From: Pseudomonadota bacterium
GTDB taxonomy: Bacteria; Pseudomonadota; Gammaproteobacteria; Acidiferrobacterales; UBA6901
Length of the DNA: 64,000 nt
Direction: 5' to 3'
Assembly (NCBI GenBank): GCA_021790335.1
Contig: JAJYEE010000002.1
Span: 4,164 to 68,163, forward strand
Each line of letters starts with the position of its first letter. Positions within the stretch are counted from its first letter, which is position 1. A model generated the notes under the pieces. The model did no database searches, was not told the DNA's origin, and saw only the letters and a list, made by a program, of their open reading frames with translations. Position numbers and translations under genes: made by a program. This document shows positions 28,497 to 43,692 of this stretch, piece by piece.

Positions 28497-29516
28497 ATGC
28501 AACTCGGTATGATCGGATTAGGACGTATGGGTGCCAATCTGGTGCGGCGTTTGGCGAAGGATGGTCACGATTGCGTCGTCTACGACGTAAACCCGGCCAC
28601 GGTAAAAGAAATCGCGGGTTTCGGCATTGAGGGGGCCGCCTCAATCGACGACCTGGTTGCGAAACTGGCCAAACCGCGTGCGGTCTGGATCATGGTTCCG
28701 GCAAGCGTGGCAGGCAAGACGGTCGAAGAACTGGCCGTGCGCATGGATGCCGGCGACATCATTATCGACGGTGGCAATAGCTACTATCGTGACGATCTTC
28801 TGAGGGCGGAGGCGCTCAAGGCGAAGGGCATGCATTACGTCGATTGCGGCACCAGCGGCGGAGTGTTCGGGTTGGAACGTGGCTACTGCTTGATGATTGG
28901 CGGAGAGGACCGGATCGTCAGGCATCTGGAACCGATCTTCAGGAGCATCGCGCCCGGGATCGAGGCGGCGCCGCGCACTCCGGGCAGAAGGGGCACCGCC
29001 AGTCCCGCCGAGCACGGTTACCTGCATTGCGGCCCGACCGGCGCGGGCCACTTCGTCAAGATGGTCCACAACGGCATTGAGTATGGTCTTATGGCGGCTT
29101 ATGCAGAAGGTCTCAATATCCTGCGCAACGCCAACGCTGGAAAACGCACGCTCGATAGAGATGCCGAGACCGCGCCGATGCGTAACCCGGAGCATTATGA
29201 GTATGAACTCGATTTGACTGAGATCGCAGAAGTCTGGCGACGCGGCAGTGTGGTTACGTCATGGCTCCTAGACCTGACGGCCGCAGCGCTGGTTGAGGAC
29301 GCCGATCTCACCGGGTACGCGGGGCGCGTGTCGGATTCAGGTGAAGGGCGCTGGACCGCGCTTGCCGCCATCGACGAAGGCGTACCCGCGCCAGTAATCA
29401 ACGCGGCGCTCTTTGAGCGCTTTGCATCGCGCGGCAATGACGATTATGCCAACCGGATTCTGTCCGCAATGAGAAAGCAGTTTGGCGGACATGATGAAAA
29501 GAAAAAAGAGCGCTGA
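28497..29516 (+). CDS. gnd: Decarboxylating 6-phosphogluconate dehydrogenase (short YqeC type)
   Basis: [50 protein letters not shown]; AAGGAG RBS. Confidence 0.95.
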
Positions 29517-29824
29517 TGTACGCAAAGACCAAGGCTGGCCAGGAACCATCCGGTGTGCTCTGCAGCGGCTACGTTCGCCTCCGCAACTTGATGGCACGTC
29601 GGCATTCGCAAAATCGTGGAACGACCTGATGGATTGCATCGCTTCGAGAAGCATTTCGCTCCGGCGGCGGTCCGGATCCCGGGCGGGATGATGTCCGGTT
29701 CGACCGGACGGCGTGACTGCCGGCGTGACTATTGCGGCAGTGGCAGTCGGATTCGCCCACGAACGGGCAGACGCGCCTGATTCAGTGCGCACCGGCATGT
29801 GCCCGTGCGCCCGTGCTCGACGGT

Positions 29825-30136
29825 TCAGGCGGCGCTTCTGCGCGTCGCGCGCGAGGCGTCAGCGTTGCGCGGGCAGCGGGCACTGACATCGGGAACCTCG
29901 AGCATCCACAGACAAAATTCGAGGTCCCGGACCATGGCCGGATGCGTGTGGTGCAGGCTCGCCGGAAATACAAAACAGACGGTATCCGGACAGACGGTGC
30001 ACGTCCCACAGGGCTGCGGCTGTTTTCCCCCCTGCCAGTGCGCGGCCGCAATGCCCAGCAGCCGGTATATCCAGTTGGAAGGACGGACCCGTTGCTTCTC
30101 GGAACCAAACGCCACGAACCCTGCTGGATCTCTCAT
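29825..30136 (-). CDS. Hypothetical 103-aa Cys/His-rich protein
   Basis: ATG ~38 nt downstream of a consensus sigma54 promoter; about 72% G/C at third codon positions (manual count); PCGTCTVCPDTVC and HHTH; no family recognised. Confidence 0.45.
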   Translation of the reverse strand: MRDPAGFVAFGSEKQRVRPSNWIYRLLGIAAAHWQGGKQPQPCGTCTVCPDTVCFVFPASLHHTHPAMVRDLEFCLWMLEVPDVSARCPRNADASRATRRSAA

Positions 30137-30183
30137 CGCGGATCACCGTGTGTCGAGCGGTCACGTGCTCTCGCGGTGATCAA

Positions 30184-30201
30184 AAGCAAACCCCGTGCCA
30201 A
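30184..30201 (-). promoter_or_regulatory. sigma54 (-24/-12) promoter
   Basis: Minus strand TTGGCACGGGGTTTGCTT: exact TGGCAC-N5-TTGC. Confidence 0.75.
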
Positions 30202-30221
30202 CGGGGAACAGCATTTGTAAA

Positions 30222-30234
30222 CAATAAGTTGGGA
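30222..30234 (-). promoter_or_regulatory. IHF-like site between sigma54 promoter and putative enhancer
   Basis: Minus strand TCCCAACTTATTG fits the CAANNNNTTR core of WATCAANNNNTTR, in an AT-rich tract ~50-60 nt upstream of the predicted TSS. Confidence 0.4.
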
Positions 30235-30263
30235 TATTTTTTGGCGAATTCCTTTTCAGATTC

Positions 30264-30311
30264 TGCACCATAGACAGGAAATTCTCGATGCCCTTGGGCA
30301 TTGTTGGTGCA
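30264..30311. promoter_or_regulatory. Pair of NtrC-like enhancer sites
   Basis: TGCACCA (30264-70) and TGGTGCA (30305-11) half-sites; 17-bp sites centred 31 bp apart; other half-sites degenerate. Confidence 0.35.
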
Positions 30312-30772
30312 CCTTCGCATATCGCGGCGCTGGCAGCCTGCGGCGAATGGACATCAGGCTGGTGCCGGTGGCGATCGGGGTAGCGGGCGATGCGTGCGCA
30401 CTGCGAGTCGACGCTGTCAGTGTGGCCCGGGCAAACCCCGCAATGGGCTGGCGTGTTGCGTACGCCCGGCGGTTTTCCGCCATCAAGAGTGGCCCGAAAG
30501 TCCACCAGCCACGTGCAGTGCCGACAAGCAGCCTTGGATGCAGATGATGGTTGTGCAACGAAAGATGCGTGACCACACCGGTCTATGCCGGGTCGCGGGA
30601 CCGCAAGCGCCAGATGCCGTGGCATCCGTCGGCATGCCATGACGTTCTGGCTAAATGGGCGAGGAGCACACCACCAATCCGTATTTTGTCCGATGTAACC
30701 GACGCCGCACGGCCCGTCCGCTGAGTGTCCGACACCGGTACGGTCAGGAGAATGCTCGCCGCAATTGGCCTC

Positions 30773-33700
30773 TCATCGCTTGCCGCGCCTGGGTTTGCGC
30801 AAAGGGTTGCCGGGATCCGATGAGGCTTTGCCGCGCGTGACCCGCTGATTGCGCCGCAGCAGCCTGGTCATTCCTTCGGAGCCCAGCGGTTTGCTGAAGT
30901 GGTATCCCTGCATGCCGTCACATTGATGCGTGCGCATAAACGCGCGCTGTGCCGATGTTTCCACGCCCTCGGCGATCACGCGAATTCCGAGACTGTGGGC
31001 CATGGCAATGATGGCCTGTGCGATCGCGGCATCGTTCGGATCCGTTGGAATGTCGCGCACGAACGAGCGGTCGATCTTGAGTGCATCGATGGGAAAGCGC
31101 TTGAGATAAGAGAGCGAGGAGTATCCGGTACCGAAATCGTCCATGGTGAAAACCACACCCAGGCCGTGCAGCCGTTTCATGGTGGCGAGTGTTTCATTGG
31201 TATTGTGCAGCAAAATGCTCTCGGTCAGTTCCAGATCCAGATATAGCGGGTCGAGGCCGGTGTCTCTCAGGACTGCTTCTATCAGCCTTGCCAGATCGTG
31301 GTTCTGGAACTGGCGCCCGGAAAGATTCACCGCGATCCGGAAGTTGTCGAATCCGGCGATGCGCCACGCCTGGGCCTGGTGGCAGGCGGTGCGCAATACC
31401 CATTCACCGATAGGGATGATGAGCCCGGTTTCCTCGGCCAGCGGTATGAATTTCAGCGGTGGTACCAGACCCATTTCCGGGTGCCGCCAGCGCAGCAGGG
31501 CTTCCATGCCGGTGATGTCGCCGGTTGCGAAATCAACCTGCGGCTGGTAGCACACCGCGAGCTCGTTGCGATCCAGCGCGTGGCGCAGTGCGGTTTCGAG
31601 TCGCAGCCGCTGGACTGTGCGGCGATTGAGTTCGGTTGTGTAGAACTGGAAAGTGTTGCGGCCGAGTTCCTTGGCGTGATACATGGCGGCATCGGCATTG
31701 CGCAGCAGGCTGTCGAGATCGCTGTCGTCGAACGGATACAGAGTAATGCCGATGCTGGCGCTTATGAACATTTCACGTCCGCCGATCAGGAAAGGCGGAA
31801 TGAAACTCTCAATGAGTTTCTGTGCCAGGCGTGCTGCATCATCCACGTGCGCAATGTTGGCCAGCACGACGGTGAACTCATCGCCACCGAGGCGCGCGAT
31901 CGTGTCGCCGGCGCGGATGCGATCGGTCAGGCGGCTGGCCACTTCCTTGAGCAGCGCGTCGCCCATTTCATGACCAAGCGTATCGTTGATGATCTTGAAA
32001 CGGTCCAGGTCGAGAAACAGCAGCGCCACCATGCGCTCGCGCCGGCCGGCATTGAGCATCGCCTGGCTCAGGCGGTCCTGGAGAAGAATGCGGTTGGGAA
32101 GACCCGTGAGCGGGTCGTAGTGCGCAAGATAGTGGAGCCGTTCCTGCGTTTCGCGGTGTTCGGTAATGTCTTCCGTGACACCCAGCAGATACTGAATCCG
32201 TCCGTCCCGGTCTTTTACCGGGATGAGCTGAGAGTCAAAATTTCGTCCGGTAGTCGTGACGAACTGAAATTGGCATGATGTTCCCTGCAACGCCTCCTCG
32301 AGAAGGCCATGAATGCGCGCGCGATCGGGTTCGCTTACCGACGCGAGCATTTCGGTTCCGCAGACCTCATATTCATTTTTCGCGCCGAGCATGCGCAGAC
32401 CGGCGCGGTTGATGCTCGTGATCCGGCCATTCGAGTCGATGGTGTGGATGGAAAGCGGGATGTTTTGCACGACACCGCGAAAGCGCTCTTCACTCGTGCG
32501 CAGTGCTTCCTCGGCCCGAACGCGCTCGGTTATGTCCTTGCCGGTGGATACGAAATGCGTTATGTGGCCATCATGGCTCTTGAGCGGTGTTATGGTTTTC
32601 TCTTCGTAATACAGCGATCCGTCTTTCTTGCAGTTGATAAATCGATCGCGGAATGCCTGGCCATTCAGAATCGTCGCCCACATCCGATCGAAGAACGCCG
32701 TGTCGTGCTGCCCAGTATTGAGAGTCTGCAGATTTTTTCCGATCGTTTCGTCGCGTGTGTATCCCGTCACCGCTTCATGGGCAGGGTTGACGTACTGGAT
32801 GATGCCGCATCGGTCGGTGATGACGACGGAATCGGCAGTTTGCTCGATGACACTCGAAAGCTCGCGCATGTGCAGTTCGGCGGCTTTGCGCGCGCTGATG
32901 TCCTCGATCACAGAAATGACATATTTTGGACCGTTCAGATCCCGTACGACCGATGCAGTCAGATTCGTCCAGACCAGCGAGCCGTCCTTTCGGTAATAGC
33001 GCCTTTCGGTCGAACAGGTCGAGATTTCCCCCGCCAGTATACGGCGGTCGGACTCGCGGTTGGCTTCCAGATCATCGAGGTAGGTAAGGCCATGGAAGGT
33101 GCGCTCGAGCACTTCGGCCTGCGTATAACCCAGTATGTCGCAGAATTTCTGATTGATGCGCAGAAACCGGCCGTCGAGTCCGACGTGTGCGATTCCCACG
33201 GCTGCCTGGCTGAACGTCGCACTGAAGCGTTCTTCGCTCTCGCGCATGGTTTCAGCGGTGCGCCGACGCTCGACCTCCGCGGCAGCGCGATCGGCGCAGA
33301 GCCGCAAAACGAGTTCGATGTGTTCCTTGTTGGAAATCGTCTTCTCGTGCATGGCAACGAGCAAGCCGATGACTCGTCCGGCAGAGTCGAATAGCGGATG
33401 ACCGATGAACGCCTCGGCACGACAGCGTCGGATGAGTTCGTCACCCGAGTAATGCGTCCCGACGCTGTCCGGAAAATGACATACGATCTTGGAGTCCACG
33501 CGTCCGCATGGCGTATCCGCATGAAGATGGTAGTCAATGTTGGCTACGATACTGCCGTGATCACAGAATGCGATAGTGCGGATGACGTCGGGATCTTTCG
33601 GGGCCGGTTCGCCTACGAAGACGTAGTCCACGCCGAGAACGCGTGACAGGGTTAGCACCAGATTCGGCAGGAAGTTATCACCACTTGTCCCCGACAGCGC

Positions 33701-34279
33701 CTGAGAGACTTCCTGCAGTGTGTTGCTCGCATGTGCCTGAGCGGCCTCGGCACGGTGCCAGGCGATCAGCAGGGCGAAGGCATCCGCGTAACATTTAGCC
33801 AGAATCTCATCGTTGTCGTCGAAAGATTCACCATTGGTTTTCTCGCTGAGAAGAAAGTGCCCGTAATGGTGGTTCCCTTGCGCGATCGGTACTGCAAGCA
33901 GCGATTTTATGGGCGGATGGTGGAGGGGCGACCCTGTAAAGCGCGGATCCTGGGAAAGCTCGTCGAGGCGCAGGGTTTCGGTGCCCGTGATTGCGGTCAG
34001 CAGCCCATGGCCGCGCGGTGGATGCCCGATGCGGCTTGCCGTGGCGGCAGCCAAGCCAGTGGAAATGAACTGCTTGATTCCATTCCCTTCCAAGGTTGCG
34101 ATGGCGCCATAGCGTACCCCGATGAGCGCAGTGAGCGATTCGATGCCATGATGCAGCACGTCATCTTCAGGCACGCGCGTGACCGGCAGTGTCTGCAGTT
34201 TGTGCAGCGCTTCGTGCAGCTTCTGCAGCTGTGCGGTGCCAATGTCGTTTTGAAATGACGGAATCGAGCTGAAAGACAT
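30773..34279 (-). CDS. GAF-GAF-PAS(x3)-GGDEF-EAL c-di-GMP cyclase/phosphodiesterase
   Basis: RLGGDEF with RAGD I-site five residues upstream, EALLRW, DDFGTGYSSL; PAS/PAC repeats; two GAF-like N-terminal domains. Confidence 0.93.
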   Translation of the reverse strand: MSFSSIPSFQNDIGTAQLQKLHEALHKLQTLPVTRVPEDDVLHHGIESLTALIGVRYGAIATLEGNGIKQFISTGLAAATASRIGHPPRGHGLLTAITGTETLRLDELSQDPRFTGSPLHHPPIKSLLAVPIAQGNHHYGHFLLSEKTNGESFDDNDEILAKCYADAFALLIAWHRAEAAQAHASNTLQEVSQALSGTSGDNFLPNLVLTLSRVLGVDYVFVGEPAPKDPDVIRTIAFCDHGSIVANIDYHLHADTPCGRVDSKIVCHFPDSVGTHYSGDELIRRCRAEAFIGHPLFDSAGRVIGLLVAMHEKTISNKEHIELVLRLCADRAAAEVERRRTAETMRESEERFSATFSQAAVGIAHVGLDGRFLRINQKFCDILGYTQAEVLERTFHGLTYLDDLEANRESDRRILAGEISTCSTERRYYRKDGSLVWTNLTASVVRDLNGPKYVISVIEDISARKAAELHMRELSSVIEQTADSVVITDRCGIIQYVNPAHEAVTGYTRDETIGKNLQTLNTGQHDTAFFDRMWATILNGQAFRDRFINCKKDGSLYYEEKTITPLKSHDGHITHFVSTGKDITERVRAEEALRTSEERFRGVVQNIPLSIHTIDSNGRITSINRAGLRMLGAKNEYEVCGTEMLASVSEPDRARIHGLLEEALQGTSCQFQFVTTTGRNFDSQLIPVKDRDGRIQYLLGVTEDITEHRETQERLHYLAHYDPLTGLPNRILLQDRLSQAMLNAGRRERMVALLFLDLDRFKIINDTLGHEMGDALLKEVASRLTDRIRAGDTIARLGGDEFTVVLANIAHVDDAARLAQKLIESFIPPFLIGGREMFISASIGITLYPFDDSDLDSLLRNADAAMYHAKELGRNTFQFYTTELNRRTVQRLRLETALRHALDRNELAVCYQPQVDFATGDITGMEALLRWRHPEMGLVPPLKFIPLAEETGLIIPIGEWVLRTACHQAQAWRIAGFDNFRIAVNLSGRQFQNHDLARLIEAVLRDTGLDPLYLDLELTESILLHNTNETLATMKRLHGLGVVFTMDDFGTGYSSLSYLKRFPIDALKIDRSFVRDIPTDPNDAAIAQAIIAMAHSLGIRVIAEGVETSAQRAFMRTHQCDGMQGYHFSKPLGSEGMTRLLRRNQRVTRGKASSDPGNPLRKPRRGKR

Positions 34280-34438
34280 CGTCGCGGCGTCAGACTAATT
34301 TCGTCAGTTTTAAGAAGACGAGGTGCATGAACGGGTCCGACTTCCTGACAACCTTAATAGTTAAATTAGATAATCTAGTTTGGGAACATCCAGCCGCTTC
34401 CCCTGGGTTTCCGGTGCGGTTGGCGGACTCGATATATA

Positions 34439-34457
34439 AAGCAAAATCCATGCCAAA
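34439..34457 (-). promoter_or_regulatory. sigma54 (-24/-12) promoter of the GGDEF-EAL gene
   Basis: Minus strand TTTGGCATGGATTTTGCTT (GG-N10-GC), ~150 nt upstream of ATG 34279. Confidence 0.65.
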
Positions 34458-34700
34458 GACTGACCTGAATTCGGCCGTGGTGGTGCATTCCGCGAGGCCT
34501 GTCAGCACGCCGCGACTTTTCTGGCCGAAGCAGGAAAGCCGGCAGCTCCACGGAAACAATCTGAGCCAGAGTAAATCCCGTCTCGCCCGTACCCCGGTCC
34601 AACAAAAAGTTTCTCGGCCGGCGCGGGGTCGACGGGGTTAGCCGGGCGGACCGGATGCGGATAAAAGCCTAAAAGCCCCCTGACCACCGCGGCATGATGC

Positions 34701-34758
34701 GGCAACTGCCTTCACAGGTCCGGAAAACCGACCGGACCCGTGAAGGCTGCGTTTGCCC
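34701..34758. other. Long intergenic hairpin
   Basis: 34708-34723 pairs with 34732-34747 (15/16 plus one wobble, 8-nt loop), extended by GGCAA/TTGCC. Confidence 0.7.
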
Positions 34759-36097
34759 ACGAGCCGCCGCCGGTTCCAATCCATGCGCGCATCGGGAAGG
34801 AACTTTGGCGTCGAGCCGGGATGGGTTACCGGTGGGTCGTTTTAAGTGTAGCTCGTCAGTGCAGCGAAAGGTAGGTTAAGAAACGCGGGGTGTGGTGAGC
34901 CCGCCGACGGCTTGTTTCAACCACCGGCATGGGCAGGCCGACGGATACCGCGCGGTGCTGTCGATACGGATTGTGCTGCGCCAACATGCGAGCGCGGCTT
35001 GAAGAGTGTGGCAAAGTTTGCACCCGCCGCCCCGATACCCGAAACATCCCCCCATCGCACTGGCCCGAAGCGTATTGCCAACGACTACGTTGCGGGTTGC
35101 GGGTCTGCGGTTGAGTTTGCAATCCGAAATGAGCACCTTGATCGTCACGCAGGTGATTGGCGAAGCGAAACCACTGGCGACAAAGTGGACGATGGGGAAG
35201 ACGTTGGAAGTGGCTACTAAATTTTCTTGAATTTCTGAAGAGCTGATACGGAAAATGTTGCTTCCCGGCGAGCATAGAGCCGACGCGCGCGCTCGGCAAA
35301 TCTGTCCTATACATCAGGGGACGCCAGAGGCACGGTTGCATGCTTATTTTTCTAGGACTCAACGCACAGAAGACAGGGGAGACTGAAAGGCAATCATCCC
35401 GGTCGCCGCCGGAAGAGTTCGAAAATATCCTCTCCAGTGCAAATGGCGCGTCTCTCTTTGCCTTGCGCGATCGACCTAGGAGGTCTAGAAAGCCCGAAGT
35501 TCGAAAGGCTGATGAAGCATGGCGAGCATTCTCTCTGGTATCCCTGAATAGCGATCACGAAAGGCCAGAAAATTCCGTGCTCGATACGATTTTCTTCGCC
35601 AGCTGCAGCGATGGGCGTGCGGCTTACGCGACACCCTGAAGTGACGGATTCGTCTTCGTGCAACGCCGGCACGCCAGTGCGTGTCCTCCGGCTTTGCGGA
35701 TCAGTTCACACGGATTCGCTGGTCTTCCGTACCGGTATCGGCCGGCAGCCCGCACCGGTGATTAACCCGAACGAAGAGGGCACCTGCGGATTGGACGGCA
35801 GGTGCAGGTTGACCTGCGCCATCGGTCGTTTGCCGCACGATGTTTGCGAACGGGTGCACTGTTCGGGGCCCGGCACGTTTGTGCGGGAAAGCGGGATGTC
35901 GATCCCGCAGATTCCTGTTTATCGTGGAACTGAGCGATACGTGTGAAATCTGGCGCCAGTGGATACGGAAAAAAGGGGGCTAAATGCGGAGTTTTATGGG
36001 ATAATATCGCTGAAAAACCGGCCGTAACTGATGCTCGAGCCTTTAGATTGCCGGTATTCAGGGGAGTAATGCGGCAAAATGAACACAACAAAAATTG

Positions 36098-36184
36098 TGG
36101 TACCGAGGAGAGGACTTGAACCTCCACGGGGTTACCCCCACTAGCACCTGAAGCTAGCGCGTCTACCAGTTCCGCCACCTCGGC
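36098..36184 (-). tRNA. tRNA-Leu (anticodon CAG)
   Basis: GCCGAGGTGGCGGAACTGGTAGACGCGCTAGCTTCAGGTGCTAG...GGTTCAAGTCC..TCGGTACCA; long variable arm; encoded CCA. Confidence 0.97.
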
Positions 36185-36230
36185 ATCTGTCCGATCCCAG
36201 GACAGGTTGTGGGATCGGGTCAGGCGGCGC

Positions 36231-36259
36231 ACTCTACCGAGAGAAGAAATTCATGTCAA
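36231..36259 (-). promoter_or_regulatory. sigma70 promoter of tRNA-Leu
   Basis: TTGACA-17 bp-TAGAGT followed by GC-rich discriminator GCGCCGCC. Confidence 0.75.
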
Positions 36260-40818: not shown

Positions 40819-43692
40819 ATGGAGGATTTGGCCTATTCGATCGGAAGCTCCGGTTCCGCCACCGAGGCGCTCAAGCTCCCGCCCCAGTCTCTCGAGGCGG
40901 AACAGTCCGTTCTCGGCGGCCTGATGCTGGACAATCAGCGCTGGGACCAGGTTGCCGACCGCGTTTCGCCGGACGACTTCTATCGCAAGGAACACCGGCT
41001 GATCTTCCGCGCCGTCGCGAGCCTGTGCGATGCCAGCGGCCCGGCCGACGTCGTGACGGTATCCGAATGGCTCGAGAAAAACGGCGAGCTCGAGGCCGCT
41101 GGCGGGCTCGCCTATCTCGGCCAGCTCGCCAACAATACCCCCAGCGCTGCCAACATTGTGGCCTATGCGGATATCGTGCGCGAGCGCGCCATCCTGCGTA
41201 ACCTCATCCGTATTGCCAACAATATCGGCAACAGCGCCTACAATCCCGAGGGACGCAACGCCGCCGAGCTCCTGGACTACGCCGAGAAGCATATCCTGGA
41301 CATCAGCGAGCAGGGTGCCCATCGCCGTGGCGGCTTCCTGCCGCTGAAGACCCTGCTCACCAAGGCGGTGGACCGGATCGACCAGCTGTTCCGGTCCGAG
41401 AGTCCGATAACCGGCGTACCCACGGGATTCAGCGACCTGGATGCGATGACCTCGGGATTGCAGGCCGGCGATCTCGTCATCGTTGCCGGGAGGCCGTCGA
41501 TGGGGAAATGCGTGGCGCACGATTCCGAACTGGTGATGGACGACGGCAGCATCGCAACTATTGGGGAGATTTTTCGCAGTCGCCGCGGCCAAGCTATCGG
41601 AACGCTGTCGTCGGATTACCGCATTGGTCGGGCCGTGCCAAGCGACTATGTTGATGACGGCTTCAAACCCGTCTTCGAGGTTACCACCCGCCTCGGACGT
41701 CGTATCGAAACCACGCTCACGCATCCTTTTCTTACCACATCCGGTTGGCGCCCCCTGGGCGAACTGGAAGTGGGGGATCAGATCGCGGTTCCACGCTGTC
41801 TGCCGGTGTTCGGGCAGAAAAAATTGCGCGAATGCGAGGTTAAGCTGCTTGGCTACCTCATCGGGGATGGCGGTTTGACCGGCAGCAACGTGCGCTTCAC
41901 CAACTGCAATCCGCGCATTGCTACTGAGTTCTGCGAGGCGGTGGAAGCATTCGGCGGCCCGTCTTTGACAGTGGGCGAACGCCGCAAAGGCTTTGCGCCG
42001 ACTTGGGGCATTGTTGGCAATCGCGCATCGATTGCAGAGCAACGAAATACTTTCGCCGTGCGCCTGGATAACGCGCTGCAAGAGGCTGGGGTGCCGTCAC
42101 GGCAGCTGGCGGCATCCATCGGTAATTCCCCGGCTGCGGTTGCCTATTGGCGCCAGGGAAGGTCAGTACCGACAGAAGCGACCCTCGGTAATTTGTGCGT
42201 GGCGCTGGTCGAACCGTCTAATTCAGCGCCTGATGGACTCTTGGGCACGCGCAAAAGCGGCAAGAATCCGCTTACACGCTGGCTTGACGAACTTGGACTG
42301 CTGGGGTGCCACGTGTCCAAGAAGACCGTGCCAAGCGCGGTTTTCCGGCTGATCCGACCGCAACAGGCCATGTTCCTCAACCGGCTCTTCGCGACCGATG
42401 GCTGGGCCACGGTGTCCGCGTCCGGCCAGGCGCAGGTTGGTTACGCCACGGTCAGCGAAAGACTGGCGCGGCAGATTCAGCACCTACTGCTACGCTTCGG
42501 GATCATTGCCTCGCTGCGGCGGCGCCAGGTCAAGTTTCATGAAACGCGCCGTCCATCCTGGCAGCTCGACATTACGCATGCCGAATCGATTCTGACGTTT
42601 GCCGGTACTATCGGTATCTACGGAAAGGAAGAGGCGCTCACCGCTGTTGTCAGGGAGGTTGAGCGGCGGCGCCAGACCGATACAGATCTAGTGCCGGCCG
42701 AGGTATGGAACAGCATTGCGGGTACAAAAGGCGATTTGTCCTGGTCGGAACTGGCCCGAAGGGCCGGCATTAACGATTCAAACCTACACCTCGGTCGGCG
42801 CCAGTTGTCCAGGCCCCGGCTTGCCAGATTCGCGTTGGCGCTGGGCGACCGGGAACTGTTGGCGCTCTCTCAGAGTGATGTCTACTGGGACCGCATTGTC
42901 TCGATCGTGCCGCTGGGCGAGAAACAGGTCTATGATCTCACTATTCCGGACACCCACAATTTCATCGCCAACGATATCTGCGTGCATAACACATCACTTG
43001 CTATGAATATCGCGGAAAATGCGGCGGTTGGTGCAAAATTGCCGGTCGCCGTGTTCAGCATGGAAATGCCCGGGGAGCAGCTGGCAATGCGCATGATGTC
43101 GTCGCTCGGACGCATCAACGCGCACAAGGTGCGGACCGGCAAGCTAGAGGATGATGACTGGCCGCGCCTCACTTCGGCCATCGGGTTGCTGGCTGATGCA
43201 CCGATGTTCATCGACGACACCCCGGCACTCACGCCGCTGGAGCTGCGCTCGCGCGCCCGACGCCTCAAACGCGAGCACGGTCTGGGACTCATCGTCGTAG
43301 ACTACCTGCAGCTCATGCAGTCTCCGGAGAACGGCGAGAACCGGGCAACCGAAATCTCCGGCATCACGCGTTCTCTCAAGAGCCTGGCGAAGGAGCTGAA
43401 CGTACCGCTCATCGCCATGTCGCAGCTCAATCGCAGCCTGGAACAGCGGCCGAACAAGCGTCCGGTGATGTCGGATCTGCGCGAATCGGGCGCCATCGAG
43501 CAGGACGCGGATGTCATCTTCTTCATATACCGGGACGAAGTGTACAACGAGGACAGCCAGGACAAGGGAACGGCCGAGATCATCATCGGCAAGCAGCGCA
43601 ACGGTCCGACCGGCAAGGTGCGCCTGACCTTTCTCGGCGAATACACCCGCTTTGAGAATTACGCCAGCGGTGCCTATGACGAGCGGTTCTGA
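40819..43692 (+). CDS. dnaB: Replicative DNA helicase DnaB, intein-containing
   Basis: PPQSLEAEQSVLG; Walker A GRPSMGK|T split by an intein; VDYLQL, DLRESGAIEQDAD, KQRNGP. Confidence 0.97.
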   Translation: MEDLAYSIGSSGSATEALKLPPQSLEAEQSVLGGLMLDNQRWDQVADRVSPDDFYRKEHRLIFRAVASLCDASGPADVVTVSEWLEKNGELEAAGGLAYLGQLANNTPSAANIVAYADIVRERAILRNLIRIANNIGNSAYNPEGRNAAELLDYAEKHILDISEQGAHRRGGFLPLKTLLTKAVDRIDQLFRSESPITGVPTGFSDLDAMTSGLQAGDLVIVAGRPSMGKCVAHDSELVMDDGSIATIGEIFRSRRGQAIGTLSSDYRIGRAVPSDYVDDGFKPVFEVTTRLGRRIETTLTHPFLTTSGWRPLGELEVGDQIAVPRCLPVFGQKKLRECEVKLLGYLIGDGGLTGSNVRFTNCNPRIATEFCEAVEAFGGPSLTVGERRKGFAPTWGIVGNRASIAEQRNTFAVRLDNALQEAGVPSRQLAASIGNSPAAVAYWRQGRSVPTEATLGNLCVALVEPSNSAPDGLLGTRKSGKNPLTRWLDELGLLGCHVSKKTVPSAVFRLIRPQQAMFLNRLFATDGWATVSASGQAQVGYATVSERLARQIQHLLLRFGIIASLRRRQVKFHETRRPSWQLDITHAESILTFAGTIGIYGKEEALTAVVREVERRRQTDTDLVPAEVWNSIAGTKGDLSWSELARRAGINDSNLHLGRRQLSRPRLARFALALGDRELLALSQSDVYWDRIVSIVPLGEKQVYDLTIPDTHNFIANDICVHNTSLAMNIAENAAVGAKLPVAVFSMEMPGEQLAMRMMSSLGRINAHKVRTGKLEDDDWPRLTSAIGLLADAPMFIDDTPALTPLELRSRARRLKREHGLGLIVVDYLQLMQSPENGENRATEISGITRSLKSLAKELNVPLIAMSQLNRSLEQRPNKRPVMSDLRESGAIEQDADVIFFIYRDEVYNEDSQDKGTAEIIIGKQRNGPTGKVRLTFLGEYTRFENYASGAYDERF
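41509..42990 (+). mobile_element. 494-aa intein with LAGLIDADG homing endonuclease in the DnaB P-loop
   Basis: Cys1 after GK; block B TLTHPF; blocks C LLGYLIGDGG and E FLNRLFATDG; block F VYDLTI; terminal HN followed by Thr+1. Confidence 0.95.

Follow-up and report, generated by a model that had tools for sequence, protein, structure and literature searches.

We report here that the minus-strand interval 30311-29825 of the window (the whole 64-kb stretch of DNA that was analyzed) is probably a self-contained single-gene unit, in which an enhancer-dependent sigma-54 promoter drives the synthesis of a small cytoplasmic protein with a DUF3579 fold. Both the promoter and the protein belong to known kinds, and the link to sigma-54 provides a first regulatory clue to DUF3579. 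The promoter and the open reading frame, ORF103, are housed in a 1256-bp intergenic gap (29517-30772) flanked by two convergent genes, namely a 6-phosphogluconate-dehydrogenase-like gene (gnd, 6PGDH; 28497-29516, plus strand) and a gene encoding a GAF/PAS/GGDEF/EAL protein of 1168 amino acids (30773-34279, minus strand). In this region the window is identical to contigs of the acid-mine-drainage MAG GCA_027338745.1 and of ENA assemblies that come from the same site.

Architecture and conservation of the putative promoter

The initial annotation had described, in this order on the minus strand, two NtrC-type half-sites, an IHF-like site, an exact sigma-54 core and an ATG start codon, and we observed all of them where they had been placed. 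The -24/-12 elements (tTGGCACggggtTTGCt) occupy positions 30185-30201 of the minus strand and contain an exact TGGCAC-N5-TTGC core, whose GG and GC dinucleotides have the exact 10-bp spacing that characterizes sigma-54 -24/-12 elements. Within them, TGGCACggggtTTGCt at 30200-30185 fits the extended consensus YTGGCACG-N4-TTGCW. Taking the C at -12 to be position 30186, transcription is predicted to start at 30174. Based on this position, the predicted 5' leader comprises 38 nt (30137-30174, minus strand) and ends at the ATG at 30136, in keeping with the distance of about 38 nt described earlier. A weak ribosome-binding site, GGTGA, is located 7-11 nt before the ATG, with a gap of 6 nt. In the metatranscriptomes X15-X17, which are from the same study, the segment 25500-35000 was represented by four small contig pieces, none of them in the region of the unit, and the organism was barely covered.

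Upstream of the core, there are two candidate activator sites. The published NtrC enhancer is TGCACC(A/T)4TGGTGCA (PMC4987338). Compared with the 17-bp NtrC dyad TGCACC-N5-GGTGCA, each site of the window combines one perfect half with one weak half (3/6 and 2/6 matching positions). Site 1 (30295-30311, minus strand, centered at about -129) reads TGCACC-aacaa-TGCCCA, in which the left half is a perfect NtrC-type half and the right half is degenerate. Site 2 (30264-30280, minus strand, centered at about -98) reads TTCCTG-tctat-GGTGCA, in which the right half is perfect and the left half, TTCCTG, is conserved yet unlike NtrC. The start positions of the heptamer TGCACCA (30311-30305) and of its inverted copy TGGTGCA (30270-30264, minus strand) are separated by 41 bp. 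If both are taken to be the strong halves of 17-bp sites, they reproduce the centers given in the initial annotation, -129 and -98, at a distance of 31 bp or three helical turns. TGCACCA occurs 19 times in the 64-kb window. Between this putative enhancer and the -24 element, from -57 to -45, lies an IHF-like bending site (30219-30231, minus strand; CAACTTATTGTTT), the complement of AAACAA-N4-TTG. It deviates at one position from the general pattern WATCAA-N4-TTR, and likewise at one position from the core consensus AATCAA-N4-TTG as quoted in PMC3224663; the match is perfect in the relatives L086, L087 and L097.

An exact TGGCAC-N5-TTGC is present only once in the window, compared to 0.25 occurrences expected by chance, and 21 of 100 shuffled windows contained at least one. 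The window alone thus leaves chance possible, and the significance of the promoter comes from its conservation among relatives. On the coding strand upstream of the homologous open reading frame, we found TGGCA[CT]-N5-TTGC in all 17 distinct loci having enough upstream sequence; these loci originate from MAGs of Acidiferrobacterales in acid mine drainage and from further metagenomes. In 14 of them it is accompanied, in exact register, by the same TGCAC/TGGTGCA pair and the same TTGATT core, with invariant spacing of the activator sites and without conservation of the intervening bases. Conservation of the motifs, which the initial annotation had left to be checked, is therefore present for the core in every locus and for the upstream elements in most of them. 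In contigs of a sister species, the sigma-54 core is unchanged although adjacent bases differ.

A footprint was obtained from a gap-free alignment of 12 non-identical loci anchored on the sigma-54 core. The conserved blocks are TGCAC (-137 to -133), G.c.CA (-124 to -120), tTccTg (-106 to -101), TGGTGCA (-96 to -90), atTGaTt (-51 to -45) and TGGCAcG..G.TTGCT (-26 to -11). Among the 12 loci, TGCAC and TGGTGCA are invariant, G.c.CA and tTccTg are conserved, the IHF-like core atTGaTt is kept between variable flanks, and the block containing the -24/-12 elements is invariant or nearly so. Outside these six blocks the information content is low, and the spacing between blocks is fixed. Phylogenetic footprinting alone can thus validate a promoter call that was made from a single sequence.

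These data bear on the possibility that the sigma-54 match arose by chance, or that CCCCGTTGGCACGGGG followed by TTTGCTTTTG constitutes the intrinsic terminator of the upstream GGDEF-EAL transcript, with ORF103 being either read through or spurious. A terminator scan does score this hairpin, which overlaps the -24 element, and its T-run, the site is located downstream of a co-directional gene, and the chance expectation given above is not negligible for one window. However, the left arm of the hairpin is not conserved, as it reads TTATTAG in L086 and ATGGCA in L087 and carries substitutions at 30201 and 30206 in the sister species, and for this reason we reject the terminator. Moreover, the bases of the -24/-12 elements are invariant or nearly so in 17 loci, which outside the sister species do not share the upstream gene, the site lies approximately 570 nt past the GGDEF stop codon, and ORF103 is under purifying selection, so that this explanation is very improbable as a whole.

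The three most divergent loci differ in having a compact dyad at about -119 instead of the split pair. In L099 and L102 this dyad is GCACC-N5-GGTGC, which by its sequence corresponds to canonical NtrC geometry, and in L103 it is a weaker TGCGCC-N5-AGTGCA. TGGCAC precedes the ATG by 64-67 nt in the closest relatives and by 169-212 nt in other loci. The latter distances were observed in two other branches of the clade, one comprising L094 (1549-1697), L095, L096, L098 and L101 and the other L099, L102 and L103. The long leaders of these branches contain the conserved blocks GATGACGATC and CGGGAG, together with a possible long hairpin that shows little covariation; an Rfam search of them gave no match. 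They may add a layer of post-transcriptional control that is absent from the 38-nt leader of the window.

For more distant DUF3579 genes at five loci (L105, L109, L111, L113 and L114/L115), the 420-450 nt preceding the gene contained no sigma-54 core. The proteins encoded there share 23-37% identity with the window protein across most of the latter's length, with the exception of P0022 (L111), which matches it over a stretch of 19 residues only. Based on the comparison of 17/17 with 0/5 loci, the association with sigma-54 is confined to the clade of at least 55% identity.

The window contains a further sigma-54-like element, TGGCATggattTTGCT, at 34440-34455 (minus strand); the GAF/PAS/GGDEF/EAL gene begins with its ATG (34279) about 160 nt downstream. 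TTTCCTG is found 82 nt upstream of this element, compared to 81 nt in the ORF103 promoter, and TGCACCA 32 nt upstream; these motifs are at 34531-34537 and 34481-34487 of the minus strand, respectively.

ORF103 as a gene and its genomic setting

ORF103 (29825-30136, minus strand) extends from the ATG at 30136 to a stop codon at 29827-29825 and encodes a divergent Cys-rich DUF3579 protein of 103 amino acids, with a mass of 11.4 kDa and a pI of 8.9. The length, the six Cys and a GC content of about 72% at third codon positions had been noted at the outset and were all recovered here: there are 103 codons, Cys residues at positions 43, 46, 49, 54, 75 and 88, and a GC3 of 0.71, which compares to 0.68-0.72 in neighboring genes. 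His residues are at positions 33, 62, 63 and 65. A search of 5.8 billion proteins identified four homologues of 65-95% identity annotated in Acidiferrobacterales MAGs, ten clusters emerged when 1.84 billion representatives were searched exhaustively with a profile, and a metagenome scan yielded 14 further loci.

As judged from the substitutions among these sequences, ORF103 genuinely encodes a protein and evolves under purifying selection. According to the Nei-Gojobori method, dN/dS is 0.18-0.33 at dS of up to 1.5 for the six pairs formed by the window, L085, L086 and L087. In the five divergent pairs, 41-53 of 81-100 differences are at codon position 3, for example 20, 18 and 43 differences at positions 1, 2 and 3. 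Cys codons are preserved through synonymous changes between TGT and TGC, and the reading frame and its stop codon are kept in 17 loci. Conservation of the ORF and dN/dS had been proposed as checks, and the ORF is indeed conserved at a low dN/dS.

The initial annotation had considered an sRNA as an alternative product. The transcript would then act as a non-coding or dual-function small RNA, and the ORF would be incidental. Several sigma-54-dependent sRNAs are encoded by short, stand-alone units with their own sigma-54 promoter; the unit described here is of this kind, and relatives have long conserved leaders of 170-212 nt. Yet the excess of third-position substitutions, the conserved frame and the synonymous changes at conserved Cys codons argue for a protein and lead us to reject the small-RNA reading, which has very little probability left. 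The protein has homology to a family with a solved structure, the leader in the window is 38 nt only and folds no better than shuffled sequences (z = 0.90), and Rfam gave nothing relevant in 28500-31500 at E up to 10, nor at the gathering score anywhere in the window.

The region had also been described as one that an annotator would call empty. This is not so, because gene callers and the NCBI annotation of related MAGs already call a hypothetical protein here. In the identical contigs, gene callers additionally predict ORF159 (30161-30640, minus strand; 159 amino acids), which spans the whole promoter region. This prediction looks spurious and is rejected: the region contains indels of 8 nt and 1 nt in relatives, its substitutions do not follow the codon phase, and an equivalent ORF is missing from the sister species.

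Comparison with relatives indicates that the unit is autonomous. BLAST similarity between the window and L086 extends from 30311 to 29824, i.e. from the first base of activator site 1 to the stop codon. Neighboring genes are gnd and the GGDEF-EAL gene in the window and in the sister species (L085), rpoD-dnaG in L086, kdsB and a low-molecular-weight phosphatase gene (LMWPc) in L087-L090, genes for RNase R and transaldolase/G6PD in L107, for ArsP, ADH and a LysR protein in L097, for AsmA and ThiG in L094 and L101, and for OmpA in L102. There is no recurrent partner gene among the neighbors at the analyzed loci, and at no locus is the gene adjacent to a nitrogen-metabolism gene, an activator gene or rpoN. 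Based on these alignments, the sigma-54 core, the upstream half-sites and the IHF-like site are a conserved unit that goes with the gene into unrelated genomic contexts.

Several other features of the surroundings were recorded. Just after the 6PGDH gene, the window has approximately 94 bases (29570-29663) that L085 and metagenome contigs of the sister species lack, and about 70 of these sit on a different contig in some metagenomes. Downstream of the ORF103 stop codon, about 62 bases (29755-29816) are replaced in relatives. No repeat copy of either segment was found in the window. The unlike flanks of metagenome contigs had raised the possibility of a mobile element around ORF103, and comparison with the sister species (L085) identified ordinary synteny with indels instead. 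A scan of genome contigs with the neighboring 6PGDH gene gave 74% identity as the best match and no close genome. Between the GGDEF-EAL gene and the RNase R gene are about 2 kb (34280-36252) without an ORF of at least 200 amino acids, which contain one tRNA gene (36101-36184, minus strand). The homologue of the Cys-rich gene in L107 adjoins the RNase R gene; the window has an RNase R gene but no second copy of the ORF103 gene was found in it. Finally, an intein containing a homing-endonuclease domain of the LAGLIDADG type splits the gene for the replicative helicase DnaB (40819-43692, plus strand).

A Cys-rich clade of the DUF3579 family

The initial annotation had regarded the product as an undescribed protein. 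It is correct that no function is known; the protein itself, however, is by profile and fold a divergent member of the DUF3579 superfamily (PF12112) that falls below the threshold of Pfam, and a structure, 2L9D, has been solved for this family. The window ORF matches PF12112 with 13.1 bits (E = 0.14), which is below the gathering score of 25 bits. P0002 and P0003 score 16.5 and 19.7 bits, and the weak matches are co-linear in all three proteins tested. Bridging relatives identified by profile search (P0009-P0013) reach 31-59 bits, above the gathering score. An HHalign comparison of the clade with DUF3579 members above the gathering score gave 98.9% probability (E = 1.3e-17) over 88 columns, and the family profile matches PDB entry 2L9D with E = 7e-9. 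The title of this entry describes it as the first structural representative of PF12112, and we take its protein to be YP_546394.1 of Methylobacillus flagellatus.

An AlphaFold model of the ORF103 protein has a pLDDT of 77.6 and a pTM of 0.69, with residues 100-103 below a pLDDT of 50. Using this model, the best PDB match in Foldseek is again 2L9D (probability 0.99, TM 0.53/0.50, E = 0.026), followed by generic ferredoxin-like folds. The predicted fold similarity thus provides moderate support for membership in DUF3579. Like 2L9D, the ORF103 protein is about 100 amino acids long and combines a (V/L)RPS(N/D)W motif and a co-linear profile match with an alpha/beta ferredoxin-like fold. By contrast, it contains six Cys, of which only one position is aligned with a Cys of 2L9D. 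Within DUF3579, the sigma-54 promoter is tied to the clade of ORF103 only, and we conclude from the sequences that the relatives of ORF103 are a distinct Cys-rich, sigma-54-linked clade of this family. A full-text literature search found no paper mentioning DUF3579 or PF12112.

The motifs of the ORF103 protein are VRPSNW, C43-x2-C46-x2-C49-x4-C54, C75, C88-P-R and a C-terminal Ala-Ala. Conserved throughout the family are VRPS(N/D)W, C46-x2-C49-x4-C54 and C88-P; C43, C75, H33 and H65 are conserved within the clade only. The HHTH run, to which the initial annotation had drawn attention, is not conserved as such, and only H65-P66 and H33 are kept, again within the clade. The four Cys that are conserved across the wider family are compatible with the metal site that had been suggested, and C46, C49, C54 and C88 probably hold a Zn or Fe-S center. 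Counting against a metal center, 2L9D aligns one Cys only, at C54, and within the aligned stretch it lacks a Cys at both C46 and C49. The window protein has no match to a metal-domain Pfam family, and its Cys spacing fits no standard ferredoxin or zinc-ribbon signature. The closest likeness is to the [4Fe-4S] ferredoxin motif CxxCxxCxxxCP, in that CxxCxxC in the ORF103 protein precedes another Cys and, at a distance, a Cys-Pro. It differs from this motif in its spacing, CxxCxxCxxxxC, in a Pro after the third Cys, in the lack of a Fer4 match at E up to 10, and in that C43, with which its triplet begins, is conserved within the clade only.

A C-terminal Ala-Ala is present in 18 of 22 DUF3579-related sequences (P0001-P0023), where it follows tails of differing length that cannot be aligned. 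Its conservation suggests a terminal recognition signal. An Ala-Ala after a variable, unstructured tail is reminiscent of ssrA-like ClpXP signals (…LAA-COOH), although the preceding residue in the ORF103 family is Ser, Asn or Val rather than Leu. That it acts as a ClpXP-type degron in a protein with a transient regulatory role is speculative, given that the likeness consists of the terminal dipeptide.

Candidate activators and proposed regulation

We propose that sigma-54 RNA polymerase forms a closed complex on TGGCAC-N5-TTGC, as indicated by the sequence of this site and its conservation. An enhancer-binding protein, presumably of the NtrC type, would bind the two observed sites (centers at about -129 and -98), which share one face of the helix. 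IHF would bend the DNA at about -51, where its putative site is located, and thus bring the activator to the polymerase. ATP hydrolysis would then open the promoter and allow transcription from near 30174. Because each site is half-degenerate, activation might occur only at high levels of the phosphorylated activator. The product is predicted to keep the alpha/beta core of DUF3579, the four Cys of the family and the clade-specific C43 and C75. Its Ala-Ala end, by resemblance to ssrA-like ClpXP recognition signals, might render it short-lived, and a short life would in turn favor a transient role as a regulator or adaptor over that of an enzyme; both of these steps are speculative.

The arrangement resembles glnAp2-type promoters controlled by NtrC and sigma-54, such as those of enteric glnA, glnK-amtB and glnHPQ, as the initial annotation had maintained. 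Common to both are a core with GG at -24 and GC at -12 and the consensus TGGCAC-N5-TTGC, and two TGCACC/GGTGCA sites approximately three helical turns apart between -90 and -140; an IHF site between enhancer and promoter is shared with glnHp2. Accordingly, the core, the spacing of the two sites and the IHF-like site of the earlier comparison hold up. The dyad is matched in part: each 17-bp site of ORF103 has one consensus half, the outer one, and a conserved TTTCCTG takes the place of the inner half of site 2. Also unlike glnAp2-type promoters, the ORF103 promoter serves a single small gene without linked nitrogen genes.

The activator may well be NtrC, with nitrogen limitation as the signal, as the identity of the half-sites implies. 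Nitrogen limitation is the most likely signal because TGCACC-N5-GGTGCA is the recognition sequence of NtrC. Neither rpoN nor ntrC nor another activator gene was detected in the 64-kb window using RpoN-box and GAFTGA signatures and a Pfam search of 18 large ORFs; the sole GAFSGA match in the activator-signature search was in an EamA transporter.

Alternatively, the promoter and the gene could be as described here, but controlled by some other enhancer-binding protein with the same TGCACC half-site. It would respond to a non-nitrogen signal, for example redox, sulfur, iron or metal stress in an acid-mine organism. This alternative arises because there is only one good NtrC half per site, because the conserved TTCCTG (as part of TTTCCTG) is unlike NtrC, and because nitrogen genes are never among the neighbors. 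Moreover, the strong halves are 41 bp apart and do not form a compact dyad, and a Cys-rich protein would suit redox or metal biology. Set against this, TGCACC/GGTGCA is a specific recognition sequence of NtrC, a compact dyad at NtrC spacing is present in L099 and L102 and in weaker form in L103, and a pair of sites separated by three turns at -100 to -140, together with an IHF site, corresponds to a glnAp2/glnH-type layout. Overall, we regard a different activator as rather unlikely and continue to favor NtrC.

A more far-reaching interpretation is that the Cys-rich DUF3579 clade, in Acidiferrobacterales and in other metagenomes, represents a dedicated, single-gene nitrogen-stress output of NtrC and sigma-54. 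The protein would be a metal- or redox-sensing regulator or adaptor, kept short-lived by its Ala-Ala tail, through which nitrogen starvation is coupled to the status of Fe-S, redox or metals. We consider this doubtful at present; if true, it would give the DUF3579 family its first function.

In conclusion, a structure has been available for DUF3579 since 2011 but no function, and the promoter that precedes the genes of this clade in every neighborhood offers a testable handle on when the protein is made. ORF103 is also a candidate member of the sigma-54 regulons, so far little explored, of acidophilic bacteria that oxidize sulfur and iron.
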